A stretch of 64,000 nt of DNA from Verrucomicrobiota bacterium (GCA_038214755.1 JBBQRQ010000005.1:1-64000), one strand, 5' to 3'. Counted from the first letter of the stretch, positions 15,679 to 62,670 are shown. The notes: generated from the sequence alone by a model not told the origin. Made by a program: numbers and translations.

Positions 15679-16029
15679 GTGAATTTTTTAAAAACAGTTT
15701 TCGCGGTTTTCGCCGGCGCCGTTCTGCTGGCATCCCAAACTGTTTTCGCGTGGGGCCAACAGGAGTTTTCCAAGCCGCAGGTCTGTTGTTGCTGCGCCTG
15801 TAAAATGATCAATTGCTGCGTGGCGCAGCCGACTTCTCCTGTGCAACCGATTCCGGCTGCTCCGGCGCGCACGGTTTCCCAACATCATTACCAAATCGTT
15901 TCCACCATTGCGGCGTTGCTGTTGCAATCGCCCGAAAAATCTCCCGAAAAAATTTCCCTTCCTCCGCTTGCGTCTCTCGACCCCGCTGCGGTTCCGCTCT
16001 ACCAGCGGAATTGCAGTTACCTGATCTGA
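15679..16029 (+). CDS. Cys-rich exported hypothetical protein, possible metal-responsive leader ORF
   Basis: GTG start 4 nt after the previous stop; signal-like N-terminus; CCCCACKMINCC; Pro-rich C-terminus ending PLYQRNCSYLI. Confidence 0.65.
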   Translation: MNFLKTVFAVFAGAVLLASQTVFAWGQQEFSKPQVCCCCACKMINCCVAQPTSPVQPIPAAPARTVSQHHYQIVSTIAALLLQSPEKSPEKISLPPLASLDPAAVPLYQRNCSYLI

Positions 16030-16144
16030 CTTTTCCCTTCTCGCGCCCGTAGTGTGCCCTGAACCGGGCGCGCTCTGGCTTTCCTTTATTCACTTCGTTC
16101 CGTGCGGATGAAGTGTGTTCCGCATTCCAAACCGCTGAAGTTTT

Positions 16145-17527
16145 ATGAAATTAAAAATTGTTCTAAGCTTGGTGATTTTGTCCGCTGTTTCTGCCTTTGG
16201 CCAACCGCGTGTTGAGCGTCCGAGCGTTGGGAGCGTGAGTAGCGGAAAGAGCGTTGAAGCGTCGGAGCGGAACACGCTACCACGCTCGTCACGCTCCGAC
16301 CGCTCTCCGCGTTTCCTGCTGGACGAAGTTATCAGCGAAGTTCTCAGCAACAATCCGTCGCTGAAATCGGCTCGCGCCAATTGGGAAGCGAGGAAGCAGC
16401 GAGTGCCGCAAGCCCGCGCCTGGGAAGATCCAAGGGTCGGAGTCGATGTGACCGCCGCCCGTTTCGTGCGCGTGTCGCCCAATTCGTTTTCCGACGAAAA
16501 ATTAATGTTGGAGCAGACGATTCCCGTGACGGGAAAAAACCGCCTTCGCGCGGATGCAGCCGGCGCTGAAGCGTTCTCCGCATTTCAGGAATTTCATCGG
16601 CGCGAACTCGATCTGATGGCCAGGACGCGAACGGCTTATTTCCAACTGATCAATGCCGGCAAGCAAGTGGAACTGACCCGCAAAAATATCGGGTTGCTAA
16701 AACAATTTTCGGAAATCACTCGAGCGAAATATGAAGTTGGCGCGCAATCGCAGGCCGACGTTCTGCAAGTTGAAACCGAACTGGGCAAACTTGAGGAAAC
16801 GGTCTTCGATTTTCAGCGTCAGATTTCCGACGCGGAAACGCAACTCAACACCCTGATGAATCGCCCGGCGCAGTCGCCGCTCGCACTGCCTGCCGCCGAA
16901 AATTTTCAGCCTGTCGAATTATCCTGGGAAAATATCGAAGCGTTCGCGCTGACGAATCGGCCCGAATTATTTATCGCCCAAAGAAAAATTGAGGCGGCTC
17001 AAGCGCGTCTTGAACTGGCCCGACGCGACTGGTGGCCCGACCCAACTTTTCGCATCGAAGCCGACCGCTACAATCAAGCCTCGCAAATCGCCAGTGAAGT
17101 GATCGTCGGCGTGTCCATCAACCTGCCCTGGTTCAATCGCAAAAAATATGACGGGGCGATTCGCGAAAACAAAAACATGTTGGAGAGCGCCGAGCACGAT
17201 CTCGAGGCCGCGCGCACGGAAACTTTGGGCATCGTGAAAAACGCCTTGAAGAAAGTGCAAACGTTTCATCGTCACTCCGAATTGTTTCGCTCGAAATTGC
17301 TGCCGTTGGCGCAGGCAACTTTGAACTCGAAACGGCTCAACTACGAAACCGATAAAGCCAACTTCCTCGATTTGCTGACGGCGCAGCGAACGCTTCAGGA
17401 CGTTGAGTCGATGTATTGGAACCACCTGACCGATTATCAAATTGCCGTGGCCGAACTTGAAGCATTGGTCGGCGGAAAAATGGAACTGCAAAATCCTGTT
17501 GCAGAAAAAACGAAGGAGAAAAAATGA
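16145..17527 (+). CDS. TolC/CusC-family outer membrane efflux protein
   Basis: Signal peptide; NNPSLKSARANW, YEVGAQSQADVL, NRPEL, GVSINLPWF and YETDKANFLDLL OEP patterns. Confidence 0.9.
   Translation: MKLKIVLSLVILSAVSAFGQPRVERPSVGSVSSGKSVEASERNTLPRSSRSDRSPRFLLDEVISEVLSNNPSLKSARANWEARKQRVPQARAWEDPRVGVDVTAARFVRVSPNSFSDEKLMLEQTIPVTGKNRLRADAAGAEAFSAFQEFHRRELDLMARTRTAYFQLINAGKQVELTRKNIGLLKQFSEITRAKYEVGAQSQADVLQVETELGKLEETVFDFQRQISDAETQLNTLMNRPAQSPLALPAAENFQPVELSWENIEAFALTNRPELFIAQRKIEAAQARLELARRDWWPDPTFRIEADRYNQASQIASEVIVGVSINLPWFNRKKYDGAIRENKNMLESAEHDLEAARTETLGIVKNALKKVQTFHRHSELFRSKLLPLAQATLNSKRLNYETDKANFLDLLTAQRTLQDVESMYWNHLTDYQIAVAELEALVGGKMELQNPVAEKTKEKK
16207..16311. repeat. GAGCGT/ACGCTC tandem-unit hairpin cluster 1 (in frame in tolC)
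   Basis: About 7 GAGCGT-like units, then about 4 ACGCTC-like units; encodes RVERPSVGSVSSGKSVEASERNTLPRSSRSDRS. Confidence 0.85.
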
Positions 17528-18990
17528 AAATGAAATTAGTTTTGGCCGCTGAAAAACTCAAAAAACAATGGAAGGTAGGGCGCGTCACTCCGTGCGCGCC
17601 GCTTGAGCGATTCAATTCAAATTCATCGAATCTCGGCAATTGTTTGATGCGACGACGGCGCGCACGGAGTGACGCGCCCTACCTTCAATCAACCTCAGGT
17701 CTTCGACTCGTTTTACAAAAATCTCGGATTTTTTATTTCATCGTTCCGGTGCTGATGGCGGGCATCGTGTTGCTGACAACATCGTGTTCCAAAAAATCCC
17801 AGTCGGATGCCCAAAGCGACGTGGCGTACTACACCTGCGCCATGCATCCGTCCGTGAAGAGCCAGGATCCAAAAGCAAAGTGCCCGATTTGCGGAATGGA
17901 TTTGATCCCGGTTATGAAGCGGGCGGAGCGGGGGGGCAAGGGAGCGTCAGAGCGTGAGAGCGTTCCACCTGACAACGCTCAACACGCTTCACACGAATTC
18001 ACTGTGCCAATTTCGCGGCAACAAATGATTGGTGTGACTTACGCGACGGTTGAGAAAAGGCCGCTTCAAAAACAGATTCGCACGGTCGGGATTGTCGCCT
18101 ACGACAAGCAACGTCATTGGGATTATGTGAGTCGCGTTGAAGGCTACGTGCAGAAATTATTTGTGTCATCGCGCGGAGAACTCGTTGAAAAAAATTCACC
18201 GCTTCTCACCATTTACAGCCCGGAACTTCTGACCACGCAACGTGAATTCCTCAATCTCTTGCGGATGCGTGATGAAGCCAAAAAATCCGGTTCAACTGCG
18301 GCTGCGGAAAGTGCGGAAAGTCTGATCGAATCCGCCAAAGTGCGCCTGCGTTTGTGGAACATCAACGACGAGCAAATCGCAAAATTGGAAGAATCACGCA
18401 AAGGGGAAGAAACGCTCACCCTTTATTCGCCGTTCAAAGGTGTCATTCAGGATTTGCCGGTGGACCAGGGCAGGCGCGTAATGATGGGCGATCATTTGGT
18501 GGACATCGCGGACCTTTCCGTGATTTGGGTCTGGGCGGAATTTTATCAGGACGAATTGCCGTTGCTCAAAAAAGGACTGACTTTGACCATCCGCACATCT
18601 TCTTATCCAAACGAAAAATTCAGCGGCGAGATCACCGCAATTGATCCGTTTATCAACGAGGCCAAGCGCACCGGGCGCGTGCGCATTGAGGTTAATAATG
18701 CGGACTTCAAACTTCAACCCGACATGTATGTGGACGTGACTCTTCAACTTAAAATGGGCGAAGGCTTGACGGTTCCCCTCAGCGCCGTAATGCCGACGGG
18801 CCAACGTAACATCGTTTTTTTAGACAAGGGTGAAGGCAAATTGGAACCGCGCTTCATCGAGTTATCTGGGAAGTTTGGCGAATTTTACGCGGTCACATCC
18901 GGGTTGCAGTCAGGCGACCAAGTCGTCAGCAGCGCCAATTTTCTGATTGATGCCGAATCAAAAATTCAGGGCGCTTTGAAGTCGTGGTGA
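17524..18990 (+). CDS. cusB: CusB-like RND periplasmic adaptor with heavy-metal-binding domain
   Basis: YYTCAMHP..KCPICGMDLIP HMBD; SRVEGYVQKL, IYSPELL.TQ.E and NFLIDAES. ATG overlaps the tolC stop, but a later start is possible. Confidence 0.9.
   Translation: MKMKLVLAAEKLKKQWKVGRVTPCAPLERFNSNSSNLGNCLMRRRRARSDAPYLQSTSGLRLVLQKSRIFYFIVPVLMAGIVLLTTSCSKKSQSDAQSDVAYYTCAMHPSVKSQDPKAKCPICGMDLIPVMKRAERGGKGASERESVPPDNAQHASHEFTVPISRQQMIGVTYATVEKRPLQKQIRTVGIVAYDKQRHWDYVSRVEGYVQKLFVSSRGELVEKNSPLLTIYSPELLTTQREFLNLLRMRDEAKKSGSTAAAESAESLIESAKVRLRLWNINDEQIAKLEESRKGEETLTLYSPFKGVIQDLPVDQGRRVMMGDHLVDIADLSVIWVWAEFYQDELPLLKKGLTLTIRTSSYPNEKFSGEITAIDPFINEAKRTGRVRIEVNNADFKLQPDMYVDVTLQLKMGEGLTVPLSAVMPTGQRNIVFLDKGEGKLEPRFIELSGKFGEFYAVTSGLQSGDQVVSSANFLIDAESKIQGALKSW
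17571..17686. repeat. Perfect 31-bp GTAG-REP inverted pair within the cusB 5' region
   Basis: gaaggtagggcgcgtcactccgtgcgcgccg (17571-17601) and its exact reverse complement (17656-17686). Confidence 0.92.
17916..17996. repeat. GAGCGT/ACGCTC cluster 2 (in frame in the cusB linker)
   Basis: gcggagcgg..ggagcgtcagagcgtgagagcgtt..acgctcaacacgcttcacacg. Confidence 0.8.
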
Positions 18991-19075
18991 GCGGAGGAGC
19001 GGGCGAGCGTGAAGAGCGTGGAGAGCGTGGCTGTTTCCACGCTCGACACGCTCGACACGTTCGACACGTTCGCCG
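18988..19075. repeat. GAGCGT/ACGCTC cluster 3 (intergenic, before the four-helix-bundle gene)
   Basis: gagcggaggagcgggcgagcgtgaagagcgtggagagcgtgg..ccacgctcgacacgctcgacacgttcgacacgttcg. Confidence 0.85.
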
Positions 19076-19110
19076 GCTCAAACAGGAACTAACAAAAAAA
19101 GGCAAATAAA

Positions 19111-19647
19111 ATGAGAGTGGCTGATTACAAACAATTGCGCGTTTACCAACTGGCGTTCCAGTCCGCGATGGAAATTTTTCATCTCAGCAAAAAATTTCCG
19201 TCAGAAGAAAAATTTTCCCTCACTGACCAGATTCGCCGTTCGTCGCGTTCGGTTTGCACGAATATCGCGGAAGCCTGGCGCAAGCGGCGATACGAATTGG
19301 CATTCATCAGCAAGCTCAGTGATTCAGATGCCGAAGCTGCGGAAACAGAAGTGCACCTCGATTTTGCCCTGGCCTGTGGCTATCTCGCCACGGATGCACA
19401 CGCGAAATTACAGGACCACTACGACCACATTTGCCGCCAGTTGCGTACAATGATGGATGACGCTTCGTCGTGGTGCGGCAATGAAAATAAATTGCGCGAG
19501 TTTCCGGCGGAGTATGTCGTGAAGAGCGTGGAGCGTCAGAGCGGGACGAGCGTGGAAGCGTCGGAGCGTGACGTTCCCAAACGCATTTTACGCTATCCAC
19601 GCTCGTCCCGCTCCTCACGCTCAAAACCCACTCCTCCCCAATCATGA
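19111..19647 (+). CDS. Four-helix-bundle protein (23S rRNA intervening-sequence protein / Avd-like family)
   Basis: YKQLRVYQLA..FPSEEKFSLTDQIRRSSRSVCTNIAEAWRKRRY..FISKLSDSDAEAAET..ALACGYL is the family signature. The last ~40 codons are repeat-derived. Confidence 0.9.
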   Translation: MRVADYKQLRVYQLAFQSAMEIFHLSKKFPSEEKFSLTDQIRRSSRSVCTNIAEAWRKRRYELAFISKLSDSDAEAAETEVHLDFALACGYLATDAHAKLQDHYDHICRQLRTMMDDASSWCGNENKLREFPAEYVVKSVERQSGTSVEASERDVPKRILRYPRSSRSSRSKPTPPQS

Positions 19648-19725
19648 CGCCAGAACCTCCCCACATCCCACGCCTCCCAGACGCTCCACGCTCCGACGCT
19701 CCCCCCGCTCCCCCCGCTCCCCCCC
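19519..19725. repeat. GAGCGT/ACGCTC cluster 4 spanning the four-helix-bundle 3' end and the cusA start
   Basis: gaagagcgtggagcgtcagagcgggacgagcgtggaagcgtcggagcgtg ... acgctcgtcccgctcctcacgctc ... acgctccacgctccgacgctccccccgctcccccc. Confidence 0.85.
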
Positions 19726-22700
19726 TCATCGAACGTGTCATCGAAGCGAGTGGACGAAACATGTTCCTTGTTTTCATATTCGTATTTTTCGGAATTGCCG
19801 GTGGCATTTGGGCGCTGATGCGCACGCCGCTCGATGCCATTCCCGACCTGAGCGACGTGCAGGTAATTGTCTATACCGATTGGGAAGGCCGCTCGCCCGA
19901 CCTGGTGGAAGACCAAATCACTTATCCGATTTCCACTCGATTCATTGCCGCGCCAAAAGTGAAATTCGTTCGCGGCGAATCGATGTTTGGCAAATCTTTT
20001 GTCTATGTGATTTTCGAGGACGGCACGGATATTTACTGGGCACGGTCGCGAGTCATCGAATATCTCAGCGCGGTTCGCGGCATGTTGCCGGAAGGTGTCA
20101 ATCCCGTCATCGGTCCAGACGCGACCGGCGTCGGTTGGGTTTATGAATACGCGCTCGTGGACAAAACCGGGAAACACAATCTCGCCGAGTTGCGCTCGTT
20201 TCAGGATTGGAATCTTCGATACGCATTGGAGTCGGTCAAAGGCGTGGCCGAAGTTGCGCCGGTCGGCGGTTTCGTCAAGCAATACCAGGTCGATATCGAC
20301 CCGAACAAACTCGTCGGTTACGGAGTAACGCTCAAAGATGTCATCGAAAAAATTCGGATGTCGAACAACGACGTGGGCGGAAAAATTTTTGAAGTTGCCA
20401 CGACGGAATATTACGTGCGCGGTCGCGGCTACATCAAAAGCATCGAAGACATCGAAGACATTCCGCTCAAGGTCATCAAGGGCACTCCGGTTTACATCAA
20501 AAATATCGGCACGGTTCATTTGGGGCCGGATATTCGGCGCGGCATTGCGGAGTTAAATGGCGAAGGCGAAGTGGTCGGCGGAATTGTCGTGATGCGCTAC
20601 GGCGAAAATGCGTTGCGCGTCATTGACGGCATCAAAAAGAAATTGGCAGAAATCAAACCGTCGCTGCCCGAAGGCGTCGAAATTGTTCCCACGTACGACC
20701 GCAGCACTTTAATTAAAAATTCCATCGCCACGCTCCGCGAAAAGTTGATTGAAGAGTGCATCATCGTCGCTTTGGTTTGCTTGATTTTTCTTTGGCACAT
20801 CCGCTCGGCGCTGGTGGCCATTATCACTTTGCCGATTGCCATCACACTTTCCTTTTTGCCGATGCATTGGCTCGGCCTGACTTCCAACATCATGTCGCTC
20901 GGAGGCATTGCCATCGCGATTGGAGCGATGGTCGATGCGGCCATCATCATGGTGGAAAATGCGCATGCTTCGTTGGAGCGTGTTGAGCGGGAGGAGAGTG
21001 TTGAGCGTGGGGAGCGTGGAGAGCGTGACGCTCAGACGCTCGGACGCTCAACACGCTCCGACATAATCCTCGCGGCAGCCAAAAGCGTCGGACGGCCTCT
21101 CTTCTTCTCACTGCTCGTCATCACCGTGAGCTTCATTCCGGTTTTTTCCCTCGAAGCACAGGAAGGCCGGCTTTTTAGTCCGCTCGCCTTCACCAAAACT
21201 TTTTCCATGTTTTTTGCCGCGCTGCTCGGCGTGACGCTCGTGCCGGTGCTGATGGTGCTGTTGATTCGAGGAAAAATAACGCCGGAAGCAAAAAATCCGG
21301 TGAACCGTTTTTTGATCTGGGCTTACCAACCGTTCGTCCATTTCGTGCTGCGTTTTCGCTGGCTCGTGATCTTTTTGGCGCTCGTGATTTTGGGAGTGAC
21401 GGCGTTTCCGTATTTGAAACTCGGCAAAGAATTCATGCCGCCGCTCAACGAGGGAACCATCCTTTTCATGCCCACCGCCGTGCCAGGCATGTCGATTACC
21501 GAAGCGACAAAAATTTTGCAAATCCAGGATCGGCTGTTGCGGGGAATTCCAGAAGTGGAACGCGTTTTCGGCAAAGCCGGCCAATCAGAAACGCCCACCG
21601 ACCCCGCGCCGCTGGCCATGTTTGAAACCGTTGTCATGCTCAAGCCACATGAAAAATGGCGCGCGGGAATGACCTGGAAAAAAATCATCGCGGAGATGAA
21701 CGAAAATTTAAAAACGCCCGGCATGGCGAACATTTTCTGGATGCCCATTCAGACGCGCACAGAAATGTTGACGACTGGATTTCGCAGCGTTCTCGGCATC
21801 AAAGTTTTCGGACCGGACCTCGGCGTCATTCAAGACGTGGGCGTGCAAATTGAAAAGACGCTCACCGATTTTCCAAACACGCGCAGTGTTTTTGCCGAGC
21901 GGACCACGGGCGGTTACTTCCTCGACTTCACGGTGAATCGCAAAGCCGCCGCTCGCTACGGCCTCACGGTCGGAGACGTGAACGACGTTATTGAAACTGC
22001 GATTGGCGGAAAGACCATCGCGACGACGGTCGAAAAACGTGAGCGCTATCCGATCAATGTCCGTTACGCCCGTGATTTCCGCGACGATCTTGATGCCCTC
22101 AAGCGCGTGCTCGTCTCCGTGCCGGTGGATCGGGGGGAGCGTGAAGAGCGTGGTGAGCGTGAGAGCGTGAACGCTCCGACGCTCTCACGCTCTTCACGCT
22201 CCGACACTCTCACGCTCAACGTCCCCCTCGGCATGCTCGCCGACATCAGTTTCAAAACAGGGCCGCCATCGATTCGCAATGAAAACGGCCAGCTCGTCGG
22301 TTTCGTTTTCGTGGATGTGACTACTGCTGATATTGACGGCTATGTTCGCGAAGCCAAAAAGCGCGTCACCGAGCGAGTAAAATTTCCTCCCGGCTATTAC
22401 GTTCAATGGGCCGGGCAATTTGAATATCTTAAGAGCGCGGAGAAGCGACTCCAAGTTGTCATCCCATTCACGCTCCTGATTATTTTCGTTCTGATTTACC
22501 TCAACACCCGGTCGGTCGTCAAAACCGCCATCGTCCTCCTCGCCGTTCCATTTTCGCTCGTGGGCGCATTCTGGTTTCTCTATCTGCTCGGATACAATTT
22601 GAGCGTTGCCGTTTGGGTGGGGCTGATCGCGCTGGCCGGACTCGATGCGGAAACTGGCGTCGTTATGTTGCTCTATCTGGATCATGCGTGGGAAAAATTT

Positions 22701-23027
22701 CGCGCTGAAAAACGCATGAACACCCTTGACGATTTGGAGGCAGCAACGATTGAAGGCGCCGTGCAACGCATTCGCCCGAAAGCCATGACCATTTGCGCCA
22801 TCCTGTTTGGATTACTTCCCATCATGTGGTCGCCCACGACCCAAGCCGGAGCCGACGTGATGAAACGCATTGCCGCGCCGATGATCGGCGGCGTGATTAC
22901 TTCGGGCGTTCTGGAATTGCTTATTTACCCGGCGATTTACGTCATCTGGCGCCGTCGTCACTTGCCCAAAGAATCGCGTCATGAAATGCGGTTGACTGCG
23001 CTGACGACGAAGCCTGACAAAGCGTGA
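19644..23027 (+). CDS. cusA: CusA-family heavy-metal efflux RND permease
   Basis: PLDAIPDLSDVQVIVYT, LRSFQDW, NIMSLGGIAIAIGAMVDAAIIMVEN, EFMPPLNEG and GAVQRIRPK.MT motifs. Confidence 0.95.
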   Translation: MTPEPPHIPRLPDAPRSDAPPAPPAPPLIERVIEASGRNMFLVFIFVFFGIAGGIWALMRTPLDAIPDLSDVQVIVYTDWEGRSPDLVEDQITYPISTRFIAAPKVKFVRGESMFGKSFVYVIFEDGTDIYWARSRVIEYLSAVRGMLPEGVNPVIGPDATGVGWVYEYALVDKTGKHNLAELRSFQDWNLRYALESVKGVAEVAPVGGFVKQYQVDIDPNKLVGYGVTLKDVIEKIRMSNNDVGGKIFEVATTEYYVRGRGYIKSIEDIEDIPLKVIKGTPVYIKNIGTVHLGPDIRRGIAELNGEGEVVGGIVVMRYGENALRVIDGIKKKLAEIKPSLPEGVEIVPTYDRSTLIKNSIATLREKLIEECIIVALVCLIFLWHIRSALVAIITLPIAITLSFLPMHWLGLTSNIMSLGGIAIAIGAMVDAAIIMVENAHASLERVEREESVERGERGERDAQTLGRSTRSDIILAAAKSVGRPLFFSLLVITVSFIPVFSLEAQEGRLFSPLAFTKTFSMFFAALLGVTLVPVLMVLLIRGKITPEAKNPVNRFLIWAYQPFVHFVLRFRWLVIFLALVILGVTAFPYLKLGKEFMPPLNEGTILFMPTAVPGMSITEATKILQIQDRLLRGIPEVERVFGKAGQSETPTDPAPLAMFETVVMLKPHEKWRAGMTWKKIIAEMNENLKTPGMANIFWMPIQTRTEMLTTGFRSVLGIKVFGPDLGVIQDVGVQIEKTLTDFPNTRSVFAERTTGGYFLDFTVNRKAAARYGLTVGDVNDVIETAIGGKTIATTVEKRERYPINVRYARDFRDDLDALKRVLVSVPVDRGEREERGERESVNAPTLSRSSRSDTLTLNVPLGMLADISFKTGPPSIRNENGQLVGFVFVDVTTADIDGYVREAKKRVTERVKFPPGYYVQWAGQFEYLKSAEKRLQVVIPFTLLIIFVLIYLNTRSVVKTAIVLLAVPFSLVGAFWFLYLLGYNLSVAVWVGLIALAGLDAETGVVMLLYLDHAWEKFRAEKRMNTLDDLEAATIEGAVQRIRPKAMTICAILFGLLPIMWSPTTQAGADVMKRIAAPMIGGVITSGVLELLIYPAIYVIWRRRHLPKESRHEMRLTALTTKPDKA
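20971..21062. repeat. GAGCGT/ACGCTC cluster 5 (in frame in cusA)
   Basis: Encodes LERVEREESVERGERGERDAQTLGRSTRSD right after IIMVENAH. Confidence 0.85.
22127..22220. repeat. GAGCGT/ACGCTC cluster 6 (in frame in cusA)
   Basis: Encodes DRGEREERGERESVNAPTLSRSSRSDTLTLN between LKRVLVSVPV and VPLGMLA. Confidence 0.88.
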
Positions 23028-23078
23028 GTCTTCACCCTGGAGCGGCGCGTTTGTGACCGCCGGTGAAAATAATTTGCG

Positions 23079-23238
23079 AGGAGCGCGGACCGCCTTGTCC
23101 GCGTGTATCGAATTCAGTAAACGAGACGCTCGACTTCATCCCGCTCCGGTTGAGCGGGAAAAAGTTTTCAGCAAACGGAAAAAAGAGAGGCGTTTTTTTA
23201 CCTCTCGGATTTGCGCGGACATGGCTGTCCGCGCTCCT
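23079..23238. repeat. REP-like inverted pair between convergent cusA and batB
   Basis: aggagcgcggaccgccttgtccgcg ... cgcggacatggctgtccgcgctcct. Confidence 0.8.
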
Positions 23239-23255
23239 TTTCTTGAAGTTGAGTC

Positions 23256-25205
23256 TTACCAATCTTTCAATTTGCGACTGGCCGAATTCGCTTTTTTTTC
23301 CGGCTTAAAGATCAAGGTTTTGTCGTCCTGCTTCTGCATGTCGAGAAATTGGCGCGCTTGTTCGGGCGTCATCTGCCCGGCGGCCATCGCCATTGCTTCC
23401 TCTTGTTTCTGTTCGCCATCCGGCTTTGGCTCTTTGCCTTCTTTTTGCGACTTTTTTTTCTGTTCTTCTTTGGCTTTTTCTTCCTGAGATTTTTTTTCTC
23501 CCTGCGACTTCTTCTCCTCGGGCGATTGTTTTTCCTGCCTCGCCGAATCTTTCTTTTGATCCTCGGACTTGTCGGAATCTTTTTTTTCCTGCTGCTGCTT
23601 CTGTTGTTGTTGGTCGTTCTTTTGGTCCTGCTTCTCTTTGTCCTGTTTGTCCTGATCTTTGTTTTCTTTGTTCTGATCTTTTTTCGACTGCTGTTTTGGT
23701 TGCTGCTGTTGTTTTTTCAACTCTTCCAATTTCTTTTTTACAAACTCCAAATTATTTTTGGCGTCGGCATCCTGCAAATTGAGCTTCAATGAATTTTCAA
23801 AACTTTGCGCCGCGTTTTCCCAGGCGGTTTGTTTTTTTTCAGGCTCCTCCACTTGTTCGCCTGCTTCGAACAACGTATTTCCCAAATTGTAATACGACTG
23901 TTGCTGCAATTTCAGATCGGGCGACGCGGTCGCGGCGTTGAAAAATTTCTCCGCGTCCTCCAGTTGTTTTGCTTTGTAGGCGGCGGCCCCGGCGTTGTAA
24001 CTCAAACGCAAATCGTTGGTGCGTTGACGGCTCAATTTTTTAAACTCATCCATCGCCGTGTGAAAATTTCCGGCGTCGTAATCGCGCAACGCGCTGGCTG
24101 GAGATGCCATCACTGAACCTCCGCCCAACAGGAAAAACAAAGCGCCCACTGCTGCGGCGGTAACCGTTTTGTTGTTGGAAATTTCTTTTCCAGCCGCGCA
24201 CTCGACTCGTTTGCGATGCGGCAAAAACATTTCCAGAAGAAGCAGAGCAATCGCAATTCCCAGAGGCCAATGGAATCGCTCGCGCGCCTGGCGAATGAGT
24301 TTTGTCGTCGAATCAGACTTGGGCAGCGGAGCCAGACCTTGCGCATACAGCATCTCCATTGGCTTGGCCCCTTGCAGCGGCAGATAAAATCCGTCAGCTT
24401 TTTTGGCGATCTTGCGCAGCAACGTTTCGTCGAGCCGCGATTTCACCGCGTTGCCGGAATCATCTTTGAGAAAACCCAAATTACCTTGTTCGTCCGGGAC
24501 GCGAATCAATTCTCCCTCCGCAGTGCCGACTCCAATTGTGAAAATTTTCATTCCTTCTTTGGCGGCTTTTTCCGCGGCCTCTTCCGCGCCAGTGTCCTGA
24601 TCTTCCCCATCGGTGAACAGCACAAGCACTTTGTGATTCTCATTTCCTTTTTCAAATGCAGTCAGCGCCGATTCAATCGCTTCGGTGATCGCCGTGCCGC
24701 CCTGCGGGATGATCCCGACATCGAGCGCATCAACGCTTTGCCGAAACGCGTCTTCGTCGAGGGTGAGCGGGCATTGCAAAAACGCCGAGCCGGCAAACGC
24801 CACCAAACCGAGGCGATCATTTTTGGCGAGCCGCATCAAATCCAGCGCGGCGAGTTTGGCGCGGGACAAACGATTGGGCGCGACGTCCGCCGCCAACATG
24901 CTGCGCGACGTATCGATGGCGACAACAATATCCAATCCGCGTTGATGCGCTTCTTCGAGGGAAAATCCCCATTGTGGGCGGGCCATCGCCAAAATTAAAA
25001 AGACGACCGCAGCCACCAGCAACACGAGCCGAAGTTTTTGACGCGCCTGGGACACACCGACAGTGAGATTGGCCAGCAACCGCGACTGCACAAATTGGGC
25101 GATCAGTTTTTGTTTCGCGCGGCAGCTCCAGAGGAGAAACGCGCACAGCGGCGCGACGAAAAGAAGAAGCAGCCAAAGCATTTCTGGTTGGGCGAATAAA
25201 TTCAT
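23256..25205 (-). CDS. batB: BatB-BatC-like fusion: vWA domain + TPR + Gln/Lys-rich linker
   Basis: ARPQWG, DTSRSMLAADVAPNRL MIDAS, FTDGED, SRLDE; then TPR YNLGN and the terminal LKDW typical of BatC. Confidence 0.85.
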   Translation of the reverse strand: MNLFAQPEMLWLLLLFVAPLCAFLLWSCRAKQKLIAQFVQSRLLANLTVGVSQARQKLRLVLLVAAVVFLILAMARPQWGFSLEEAHQRGLDIVVAIDTSRSMLAADVAPNRLSRAKLAALDLMRLAKNDRLGLVAFAGSAFLQCPLTLDEDAFRQSVDALDVGIIPQGGTAITEAIESALTAFEKGNENHKVLVLFTDGEDQDTGAEEAAEKAAKEGMKIFTIGVGTAEGELIRVPDEQGNLGFLKDDSGNAVKSRLDETLLRKIAKKADGFYLPLQGAKPMEMLYAQGLAPLPKSDSTTKLIRQARERFHWPLGIAIALLLLEMFLPHRKRVECAAGKEISNNKTVTAAAVGALFFLLGGGSVMASPASALRDYDAGNFHTAMDEFKKLSRQRTNDLRLSYNAGAAAYKAKQLEDAEKFFNAATASPDLKLQQQSYYNLGNTLFEAGEQVEEPEKKQTAWENAAQSFENSLKLNLQDADAKNNLEFVKKKLEELKKQQQQPKQQSKKDQNKENKDQDKQDKEKQDQKNDQQQQKQQQEKKDSDKSEDQKKDSARQEKQSPEEKKSQGEKKSQEEKAKEEQKKKSQKEGKEPKPDGEQKQEEAMAMAAGQMTPEQARQFLDMQKQDDKTLIFKPEKKANSASRKLKDW

Positions 25206-27967: not shown

Positions 27968-28178
27968 GAATTCCGAAATCCGAATCCCGAATCCGAGAGA
28001 AATCCGAACGGTGAAGGGCCACGGCACGGTGCTGATGGCAGAACACTTTTCCGCGCGCTACCTCGTAGCGCAGTCATCCTTCCCTGCAAGTTGTTGAAGC
28101 TTCCATCTCCGTGTCCCCACTCGTTTTCAGTTTTTCGGATTTCTCTCGGATTTCGGGGATTCGGATTTCGAATTTTCG
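27968..28178. repeat. AAATCCG/CGGATTT heptamer-array hairpin
   Basis: gaattccgaaatccgaatcccgaatccgagagaaatccgaa arm pairs with ttcggatttctctcggatttcggggattcggatttcgaattt. Confidence 0.85.
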
Positions 28179-34891: not shown

Positions 34892-35037
34892 GGGTAGCAT
34901 CTGCCTCCGGCGGGTGCGAAACACTTTTTTATTTCGATGTTGGATGTTCAGTGTTCGATGTTGGTTTTTGATTCTCAAACATCGAACATCCAACATCGAA
35001 TTGGTTTTTTCGCACTCGCCCAAGGCAGATGCTACCC
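34892..35037. repeat. Family A REP pair enclosing CGATGTT/AACATCG heptamer arms
   Basis: gggtagcatctgcctccggcgggtgcgaa..cgatgttggatgttcagtgttcgatgttgg..aacatcgaacatccaacatcg..ggcagatgctaccc. Confidence 0.9.
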
Positions 35038-54465: not shown

Positions 54466-54628
54466 GGGTAGCACCTGTCTCCGGCGGGTGCGTGAAGACG
54501 TGCCCTTCGATGTTGGATGTTCAGTGTTCGATGTTCGATGTTAAAAATTAAAAAAACATCGAACATCGAACATCCAACACTGAACATCGAAAGAACGATT
54601 TCGCACCCGCCGGAGGCAGATGCTACCC
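54466..54628. repeat. Family A REP pair enclosing CGATGTT/AACATCG arms
   Basis: gggtagcacctgtctccggcgggtgcg..(cgatgtt)n..(aacatcg)n..ttcgcacccgccggaggcagatgctaccc. Confidence 0.9.
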
Positions 54629-62489: not shown

Positions 62490-62670
62490 CGGGATTTGAA
62501 AATCCGAAATCCGATTCTCGAAATCCGAAAGAAATCCGAAATCCGAAGACCGAAAACTCCGTGCCACCAGCGCACGGAAAAAAGGTTTTATAACCCAGAA
62601 AATTCTGCGGCACTTTCGGGTCTTCGGCCTTCGGATTTCTTTCGGATTTCGAGAATCGGATTTCGGATTT
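62490..62670. repeat. AAATCCG/CGGATTT heptamer-array hairpin
   Basis: aaatccgaaatccgattctcgaaatccgaaagaaatccgaa ... ttcggatttctttcggatttcgagaatcggatttcggattt (near-perfect inverted arms). Confidence 0.9.

Follow-up and report, generated by a model that had tools for sequence, protein, structure and literature searches.

In Coxiella, an intervening sequence (IVS) of the 23S rRNA carries the open reading frame (ORF) S23p, which is preceded by variable-number tandem GACAGAT heptamers and lies within a 28-bp stem cut by RNase III, and rRNA elements of this kind in Coxiella and Leptospira are regarded as selfish and horizontally moved (both points after the sections of PMC4990558 on these elements). 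A gene of the same protein family, coding for a four-helix-bundle (4HB) protein, is described here from a cus operon of a Verrucomicrobiota bacterium (GCA_038214755.1 JBBQRQ010000005.1:1-64000; these 64,000 nt, the whole stretch of DNA that was analysed, are called the window below). This 4HB gene is the cargo of an IVS-like hairpin cassette between cusB and cusA, and hairpins built from the repeat unit of the cassette lie in frame in the neighbouring genes of the same operon.

Parts of this arrangement are found in other systems. Palindromic elements of Rickettsia were reportedly described by Ogata in 2000 as 'selfish DNA in protein-coding genes'; they too are palindromes lying in frame in intact genes, at tolerant surface sites and with no transposase of their own, but they are dispersed and share a long consensus, whereas the repeat studied here has a 6-nt core, arms of tandem units, a clustering in one operon and a linked gene with the same arms. 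The convergent GGGAATC heptamer pairs of Xanthomonas and the STRR-type heptamers of Nostoc, as far as the relevant portions of Rehm 2015 (PMC4692102) describe them, contain G-tracts, are quadruplex-read and are mostly intergenic, the pairs lying mostly between co-oriented genes with no tie to a cargo gene. The repeats of the cus operon resemble those described in these portions of PMC4692102 in forming paired arrays of 7-9-nt units on opposite strands, able to form stem-loops and variable in unit number; unlike the Xanthomonas heptamers, GAGCGT has no G-tracts (the unit GAGCGTGN contains no run of three G), and in the source genome the arrays lie in coding sequence. Single 4HB genes (23S_rRNA_IVP) inside cas operons, e.g., between cmr3 and cmr2, have been read as possibly Cas-associated, and in contrast to the present case no flanking repeat arms are mentioned in the passages of that report on them (PMC3936711). 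The GAGCGT units also carry no GTAG, and profile searches assigned the operon genes to the families OEP, HlyD/CusB, 4HB and ACR_tran, with no Y1 transposase family among the four, unlike REP/RAYT systems (REPtron). Finally, Avd of the diversity-generating retroelements (DGRs) belongs to a distantly related four-helix-bundle fold family, but the 4HB protein scored below the cut-offs of bAvd (30.5 vs 40) and DivGenRetAVD (22.7 vs 80); since no reverse transcriptase (PF00078) was matched in the 97%-complete source genome either, a link to DGRs was rejected. A literature search that did not cover subscription journals found no published account of mRNA operons holding 4HB cassettes whose arms consist of tandem units, nor of hairpins of the cassette unit in adjacent genes. 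As far as this search reached, the combination of a 4HB cassette with same-unit hairpins in the neighbours is new; the related parts that are known are the rRNA IVS, the cas-operon 4HB genes, the heptamer pairs and the Rickettsia elements.

The source genome (G000) comprises 5.1 Mb in 175 contigs and is 97% complete; the window belongs to its contig C5, and the record titles of its same-order relatives include Limisphaerales and Verrucomicrobia subdivision 3. The operon consists of four co-oriented genes in the order tolC-cusB-4HB-cusA:

16145..17527, + strand: TolC-like outer-membrane factor gene (ORF; PF02321 OEP, E 1.5e-53)
17524..18990, + strand: CusB-like adaptor gene with a heavy-metal-binding domain (PF16576, E 5e-66; PF19335 HMBD)
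19111..19647, + strand: 4HB gene, 23S rRNA IVS protein family (PF05635; TIGR02436; translation)
19644..23027, + strand: CusA-like RND pump gene (PF00873, E 2e-220)

The pump matched the solved E. coli CusA structures 3k07 and 3t51 (E = 0). The 4HB protein reached 103.4 bits against PF05635 (cut-off 33.8) and 93.9 bits against TIGR02436 (cut-off 24), and its segment RRSSRSVCTNIAEA fits the motif GxxRxxxSxxxNxxE, quoted as conserved for this family in the passage of PMC3936711 on it, with the R, the S and the N..E correctly spaced and the first G position not a G. No nuclease or recombinase domain was found in it by profile searches. Its stop codon overlaps the start of cusA (ATGA), and a promoter and terminator scan revealed no sigma-70-like promoter site in 18900-19700, the totals being no higher than in shuffles.

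The first-pass annotation had reported six GAGCGT/ACGCTC hairpin clusters in this operon, five of them in coding sequence without a break of frame, and this description was borne out. The clusters begin at 16207, 17916, 18988, 19519, 20971 and 22127, and each consists of GAGCGT-type units followed by ACGCTC-type units. The repeat unit measures 8-9 nt with the core GAGCGT, and only this 6-nt core recurs between copies. Five clusters lie inside open frames, and the sixth (18988) begins at the stop codon of cusB. The RNA folding of each cluster was compared with 200 shuffles: those at 16207, 18988, 19519, 20971 and 22127 reached -56 to -65 kcal/mol, with 0 of the 200 shuffles as stable, and the one in cusB was weak. 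Together with a seventh, one-armed array that the first-pass annotation had missed, the clusters are as follows:

16207..16312, + strand: in-frame hairpin just 3' of the TolC signal peptide (-58.0 kcal/mol, z -4.6)
17916..17995, + strand: weaker in-frame hairpin in the CusB linker after the metal-binding domain (-30.9 kcal/mol, z -2.2, 7 of 200 shuffles as good)
18988..19075, + strand: upstream cassette arm, a self-contained hairpin from the cusB stop (-56.2 kcal/mol, z -6.9)
19519..19625, + strand: downstream cassette hairpin, which is the C-terminal tail of the 4HB protein (-65.3 kcal/mol, z -7.9)
19681..19723, + strand: one-armed ACGCTCC/CCGCTCC array encoding the CusA N-terminus, the seventh array (no local fold, z -0.5)
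20971..21062, + strand: in-frame hairpin, CusA site 1, in the loop after the NAH motif (-58.7 kcal/mol, z -8.9)
22127..22225, + strand: in-frame hairpin, CusA site 2 (-59.7 kcal/mol, z -6.2)

The related peptides that had been pointed out were likewise present in the genes named, SVEASER in TolC and 4HB, TLPRSSRSD/TLSRSSRSD in TolC and CusA, and ERESV in CusB and CusA. The downstream cassette hairpin accounts for the final ~45 codons of the 4HB gene. In a predicted fold of 18975-19740 (z -8.2), positions 18989-19006 pair with 19700-19725 as an outer stem around the 4HB gene, the first units of the 18988 hairpin providing its 5' side and the seventh array (19681-19723) its 3' side. As in the 23S rRNA IVS (PMC4990558, in its description of these elements), an ORF of the same family is thereby enclosed by terminal inverted repeats forming a closing stem, which is here a predicted one. 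Unlike the rRNA IVS, which occupies a helix of the 23S rRNA, the cassette lies between protein genes of an mRNA operon and is read through into the next gene; each arm is an entire array of 8-9-nt units, and solo hairpins of the same unit occur in the neighbour genes. No rRNA match was obtained in 15800-23300. In the same interval, an Rfam scan gave nothing at gathering score, with sub-threshold matches to microRNA-precursor models and to one antitoxin RNA model (symR), of the sort that long hairpins commonly produce.

The first-pass annotation had found such clusters only inside this operon. The strict pattern GAGCGTN{2,4}GAGCGTN{2,4}GAGCG had 14 matches in the genome, 10 of which lay inside the 6-kb operon and four elsewhere (C15:30120, C40:35283 and C44:23716/23725), and the reversed pattern had 0 matches. 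Similarly, 11 of the 26 arms with at least three GAGCG/CGCTC units genome-wide were located within C5:16214-22202. An assembly artefact was rejected, since contigs produced by another assembler, which derive from the probable source sample and are not independent data, matched all clusters with 0 differences and relatives bear such hairpins. In one contig of that sample (depth 11.6 vs ~24), 18974 is joined to 19803, so that 828 nt with the complete cassette are skipped; a co-occurring relative whose junction is empty or different may be the origin of this contig.

PF05635 matched 12 times in the genome, at 11 loci, as one broken copy on C3 accounts for two matches. The first-pass annotation had proposed to check whether the other 4HB paralogues each have a distinct local repeat. 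In the flanks inspected, nearly every PF05635 gene is flanked upstream by an array of 6-10-nt units and downstream by the reverse-complement array, and the unit differs from gene to gene. For the loci other than that of the cus operon, the arms were:

C148 and its broken copy on C3: arm unit GTTGAGG
C55: arm unit GTGAGTG
C43: arm unit GATTCGAGAT
C49: arm unit GGATTGTT
C64: arm unit GTGAAAC
C2: arm unit AATGACG
C157: arm unit CAACATC
C20: upstream hairpin only
C6: in-frame hairpin 3' of the domain

At C55:2700-3700 (locus L003), the GTGAGTG arms belong to a second adaptor-4HB-pump order in G000 (HlyD, PF05635, ACR_tran). Arrays of CACAGAGG bracket a small minus-strand gene at C22:39117-39689, which looks like that of a GxxExxY-type nuclease-fold protein, and the cassette design may thus exist in other small genes too. 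At C5:67916-68045, outside the window, a small two-ORF module is preceded by an array of ~16 units of CAACGATT and followed by GTTGAAA units.

To follow the cassette beyond G000, an order-wide set of 301 genomes was used, and 102 of these yielded a 4HB homologue with E no higher than 1e-15. In the genomes with the four closest homologues (G102, G274, G089 and G101; 75-78% identity, from four different families), the gene always lay at the cusB-cusA junction, preceded by GAGCGT arrays and followed by ACGCTC arrays, and the adjacent spacers were not alike. A species-wide collection yielded eight 4HB loci at least 72% identical (including G101 and G102 again), with GAGCG arms in seven; by the criteria used, L139 was the exception, and L146 was cut within the gene. 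For two GAGCG cassettes the setting was not a cus operon: L136 followed a UbiD gene, and L140 preceded a phosphoglucomutase-family gene. At 4HB identities of at least 72% (clade A), GAGCG(T) arms were therefore counted in 10 of 11 cassettes; of the 11, nine were in cus operons and two elsewhere. A second clade (clade B; 54-59% identity; G012, G078, G112, G119 and G135) also occupied the cusB-cusA junction, with units of the GGCGA/GGAGA type. On the 4HB tree the GAGCGT clade formed one tight group (support 94/90), the units were clade-specific, and other 4HB clades shared units of their own. Gene clade and arm unit form one heritable unit. The first-pass idea of a private system of gene plus repeat stood to this extent, the unit being heritable and its spread local and recent (see below), and fell as regards privacy, GAGCGT arrays being present in 25 of the 301 genomes.

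The flanking genes are much less alike than the cassettes. Between G000 and G101, identity was 75% for 4HB, 51% for CusA, 32% for CusB and 25.5% for TolC. In a cusA tree (FastTree, SH-like support 92, with a long-branch warning), the hosts of the GAGCGT clade fell into two lineages, and the clade-B hosts were sister to one of them. Judging from these comparisons, the cassette has passed from one cus operon lineage to another and has also entered further loci.

One explanation of a gene that travels with its own repeat is that the 4HB protein recognises hairpins of its cognate unit, in DNA or in RNA, and helps them to spread or persist, the whole being a transposase-less mobile element as the first-pass annotation had proposed. 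The clade-specific units kept with the gene across contexts whose adjoining spacers cannot be aligned agree with this, as do the occurrence of both cassette and same-unit hairpins in G000 and the absence of both from its relative G007. Moreover, at least nine strict GAGCGT matches were found in three of the five order genomes with a clade-A gene, and at least six in six of the 296 others. Nevertheless, in the genomes richest in strict matches, G113 (87), G079 (48) and G133 (31), all three incomplete bins, 0 of 16 PF05635 genes had GAGCG arms, G133 (74% complete) having no PF05635 match. The local spread looked for at the paralogues was not seen either: apart from their arms, the other 10 G000 cassettes had no array of their own unit within 8 kb (two are on short contigs). 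Furthermore, dispersed families such as AACGCGGA and GATGTTC exist without a cognate 4HB in G000, and the protein has no nuclease or recombinase domain that the searches could find. On balance, a spread driven by the protein is considered unlikely.

The age of the in-gene hairpins was approached through G007, an 87%-complete metagenome bin of the same genus and the sole close relative without the cassette. Its CusA and CusB are 92% and 88% identical to those of G000, its junction consists of the cusB stop, 24 nt and the cusA start, and its best 4HB is merely 42-44% identical to that of G000. None of the six clusters is present, and the two operons diverge exactly at the cluster sites:

16200-16323: TolC N-terminus, 124 nt in G000 vs 58 nt in G007
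17913-18004: CusB linker, 92 nt in G000 vs 161 nt (Met/His-rich linker) in G007
cassette and CusA N-terminus: present in G000; absent from G007, which has a different CusA N-terminus
CusA site 1: 108 nt in G000 vs an unstructured 75 nt in G007 and G034
CusA site 2: 114 nt in G000 vs 114 nt in G007, less than 40% alike

At the TolC N-terminus, G000 reads PRVERPSV...SRSDRSPRFLLD and G007 reads QAQETTAVATTNNLLSLN. With the junction of this same-genus relative empty and all six clusters missing from it, the spread is recent, and the in-gene hairpins were written after the split from the nearest sequenced relative. The Met/His-rich CusB linker of G007 (L132/L133; SMGMSAEEHAKMH) is the segment whose place is taken by the hairpin peptide in G000 (17913-18004), and Met occurs in the site-2 loops of most relatives and not in that of G000. 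The loss of the CusB linker may have had a functional cost or may be neutral.

The TolC insert comes after the signal peptide, the CusB insert lies within the linker, and the two CusA inserts fall in loops that correspond to gaps when aligned with solved CusA. Site 1 corresponds to a 10-residue excess after the NAH motif relative to E. coli CusA (3t51 alignment), and site 2 to ~31 residues inserted between E. coli CusA residues 799 and 803, where the HMMER alignment splits. Among 22 aligned CusA orthologues, 17 had no insert at site 2. In the closest CusA clade (G000, G007, G009, G034 and G089), all five had a site-2 hairpin of 111-129 nt (z -2.3 to -7.4), with unrelated sequences and peptides. 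The units at this site were GAGCGT in G000 and G034 and of the CGGGG type in G089, and there was no tandem unit in G007 and G009. G009 is an unpublished genome, on which its junction, its site-1 and site-2 inserts and its place in the tree are based; it has no 4HB between cusB and cusA. In the clade-B hosts G012, G078 and G112 (3 of 3 operons examined), the site-2 hairpin was built of the clade-B unit (GGCGA/GGAGA type). Extra GAGCG arrays in neighbour genes were present in at least five of the nine clade-A cus operons (G000, G102, L134, L138 and L146). The hairpins are thus confined to variable, dispensable linkers or loops, and site 2 is a hot spot whose unit follows the resident cassette.

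With all inserts translated and placed in surface linkers or loops, they might have been selected as charged flexible linkers, the symmetry of the DNA being incidental. Selection on the peptide would leave unexplained why the hairpin was kept while the peptide became wholly different among the five closest CusA orthologues, why fold z-scores go down to -8.9, and why a hairpin replaced the Met/His-rich CusB linker seen in G007; we regard it as very improbable.

The first-pass annotation had also asked about orthologous operons without the 4HB gene, and had named the same inserts in such operons beforehand as an argument against it. The answer was divided: G007 has none of the clusters, but G034, with no 4HB at its cusB-cusA junction, keeps a site-2 GAGCGT hairpin, which could be the relic of a lost cassette. 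At the G034 junction (L107/L016), an empty AATGACG hairpin stands where others have the 4HB cassette; AATGACG also flanks the C2 4HB of G000. A further candidate for an operon with GAGCGT hairpins and no 4HB gene, that of G020, was withdrawn, there being 103 N where the gene would be (G020:C256, L030/L111, ~1404-1503, a run of 103 N between the GAGCGT array and cusA). Assemblies seem to break at these repeats, and the absence of a cassette from a draft genome seems to be unreliable.

The recurrence of 4HB cassettes at adaptor-pump junctions (10 of the 30 nearest homologues at cusB-cusA, two more at other MFP-RND junctions, and C55 in G000) would agree with hairpins that serve as processing, stability or pausing signals on the cus mRNA, such as RNase III sites, and set the adaptor:pump ratio, with the shared unit allowing joint action. 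In keeping with such a role, three of the six G000 hairpins folded 9-13 kcal/mol better as sense than as antisense RNA, and the IVS stem of Coxiella is cut by RNase III (the processing section of PMC4990558). However, the sense bias was not general: G089 site 1 was far better as antisense, and the G:U pairs numbered 34 in sense and 29 in antisense. The site-2 hairpin is, in addition, dispensed with by G007 and 17 of 22 orthologues, and stable stems in coding sequence are expected to cost translation or to invite cleavage of the pump mRNA. A function at the RNA level is accordingly held to be doubtful.

Tandem-unit hairpins are common in this genome, where 108 inverted pairs of tandem-unit arrays, of many different units, were counted. 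The dispersed families GATGTTC and AAATCCGA have no cognate 4HB gene in G000. In the window, the former occurs at 34936-34997 and 54509-54588, and it is often nested between inverted (REP-like) copies of GGGTAGCATCTGCCTCCGGCGGGTGCGA; the latter occurs at 27977-28169 and 62500-62670. Of 80 short-loop hairpins of G000, about 12 fall within long open frames. Hairpins with units other than GAGCGT (AACGCGGA, AAAGTG and CGGAAC) were observed in frame at C4:22514-22626, C11:55049-55145, C13:33184-33266 and C67:1468-1549, in ORFs that we take, from the flanking peptides by eye, to be a GluQ-synthetase-like gene, rlmN, purL and nadB. A GTAG-bearing REP-like palindrome (arms GGTAGGGCGCGTCACTCCGTGCGCGCC) lies in frame at 17568-17689, at the 5' end of cusB ahead of the lipoprotein signal, where G000 has 213 nt and G007 24 nt; the word depth there rises to 388, as expected of a dispersed repeat.

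This background raises the alternative of independent insertions of GAGCGT hairpins mobilised in trans, of the MITE or Rickettsia-palindromic-element type, which favoured the operon, the cassette merely sharing the family or having landed in it. The scatter of GAGCGT arrays in several genomes, the many hairpin families of G000, some nested in REP pairs, the presence in further large ORFs of in-frame hairpins with different units and the entry of the REP-like palindrome into the 5' end of cusB over the same period would all fit. Against such insertions, a 6-kb stretch of the 5.1-Mb genome accounts for 10 of the 14 strict matches, which is far from dispersed, inspection of the G000/G007 alignments showed no target duplications at the sites, the segments were replaced and not simply inserted (92 vs 161 nt; 114 vs 114 nt), and the site-2 unit follows the clade of the resident cassette. 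Independent insertions of a dispersed family are rated as improbable.

The explanation we prefer is that the in-gene hairpins arose by copying at the DNA level between nearby arrays of the same unit, to which we give a probability of about 0.5. The clusters in tolC, cusB and cusA outside the cassette are solo hairpins that belong to the repeat family of its arms. DNA would have been copied between such arrays by short-patch gene conversion or by template switching, and the likely local source is the arms of the cassette. Slippage of units and correction of one arm by the other would have followed, and selection would have retained only in-frame, stop-free versions. Arm-to-arm correction is visible in G089, in a tolC-cusB hairpin whose GAGTGT arm is matched by an ACACTC arm.

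Several results weigh against this copying. No enzyme or mechanism for it was identified, and unit-like 7-mer seeds were not significantly enriched in the replaced G007 segments (3 in 533 nt vs 21 in 6176 nt; 5.6 vs 3.4 per kb). In G089, which has a GAGCGT cassette, CusA sites 1 and 2 carry different units, G101 and G274 have the cassette and no site-2 insert, and the G034 hairpin described above has no 4HB beside it. The 10 other G000 cassettes lack local spread, and copying from the arms is therefore not a general property of them. Since GAGCGT arrays are dispersed in G020, G079, G089, G101, G113 and G133, an outside source is possible, and the close comparison involves one cassette-less relative, the 87%-complete bin G007. 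A related proposal, which we rate as improbable, is that each 4HB lineage has a repeat 'address': the arm unit would mark where the cassette can recombine, the resident cassette would convert nearby hairpins to its own unit, and a multimeric 4HB would read the ~9-bp periodic array of helices and loops. If this were true, gene and repeat would make up an element of an unrecognised kind, which propagates itself and rewrites loops of the proteins encoded by the operon that hosts it.

The locus links 4HB "intervening-sequence" cassettes outside rRNA to in-frame tandem-unit hairpins, and it offers a datable natural experiment, in which two genomes of one genus differ by a cassette and about five rewritten protein loops. 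For annotators, it means that such loops of RND pumps are repeat-derived. If the copying took place as proposed, a process at the level of the DNA, and not a need of the protein, can overwrite the loops of a metal pump, including a Met/His-rich linker. As for the family, the repeat specific to each clade stays with the PF05635 gene when it moves from locus to locus, so that whether the protein reads its own repeat becomes directly testable.

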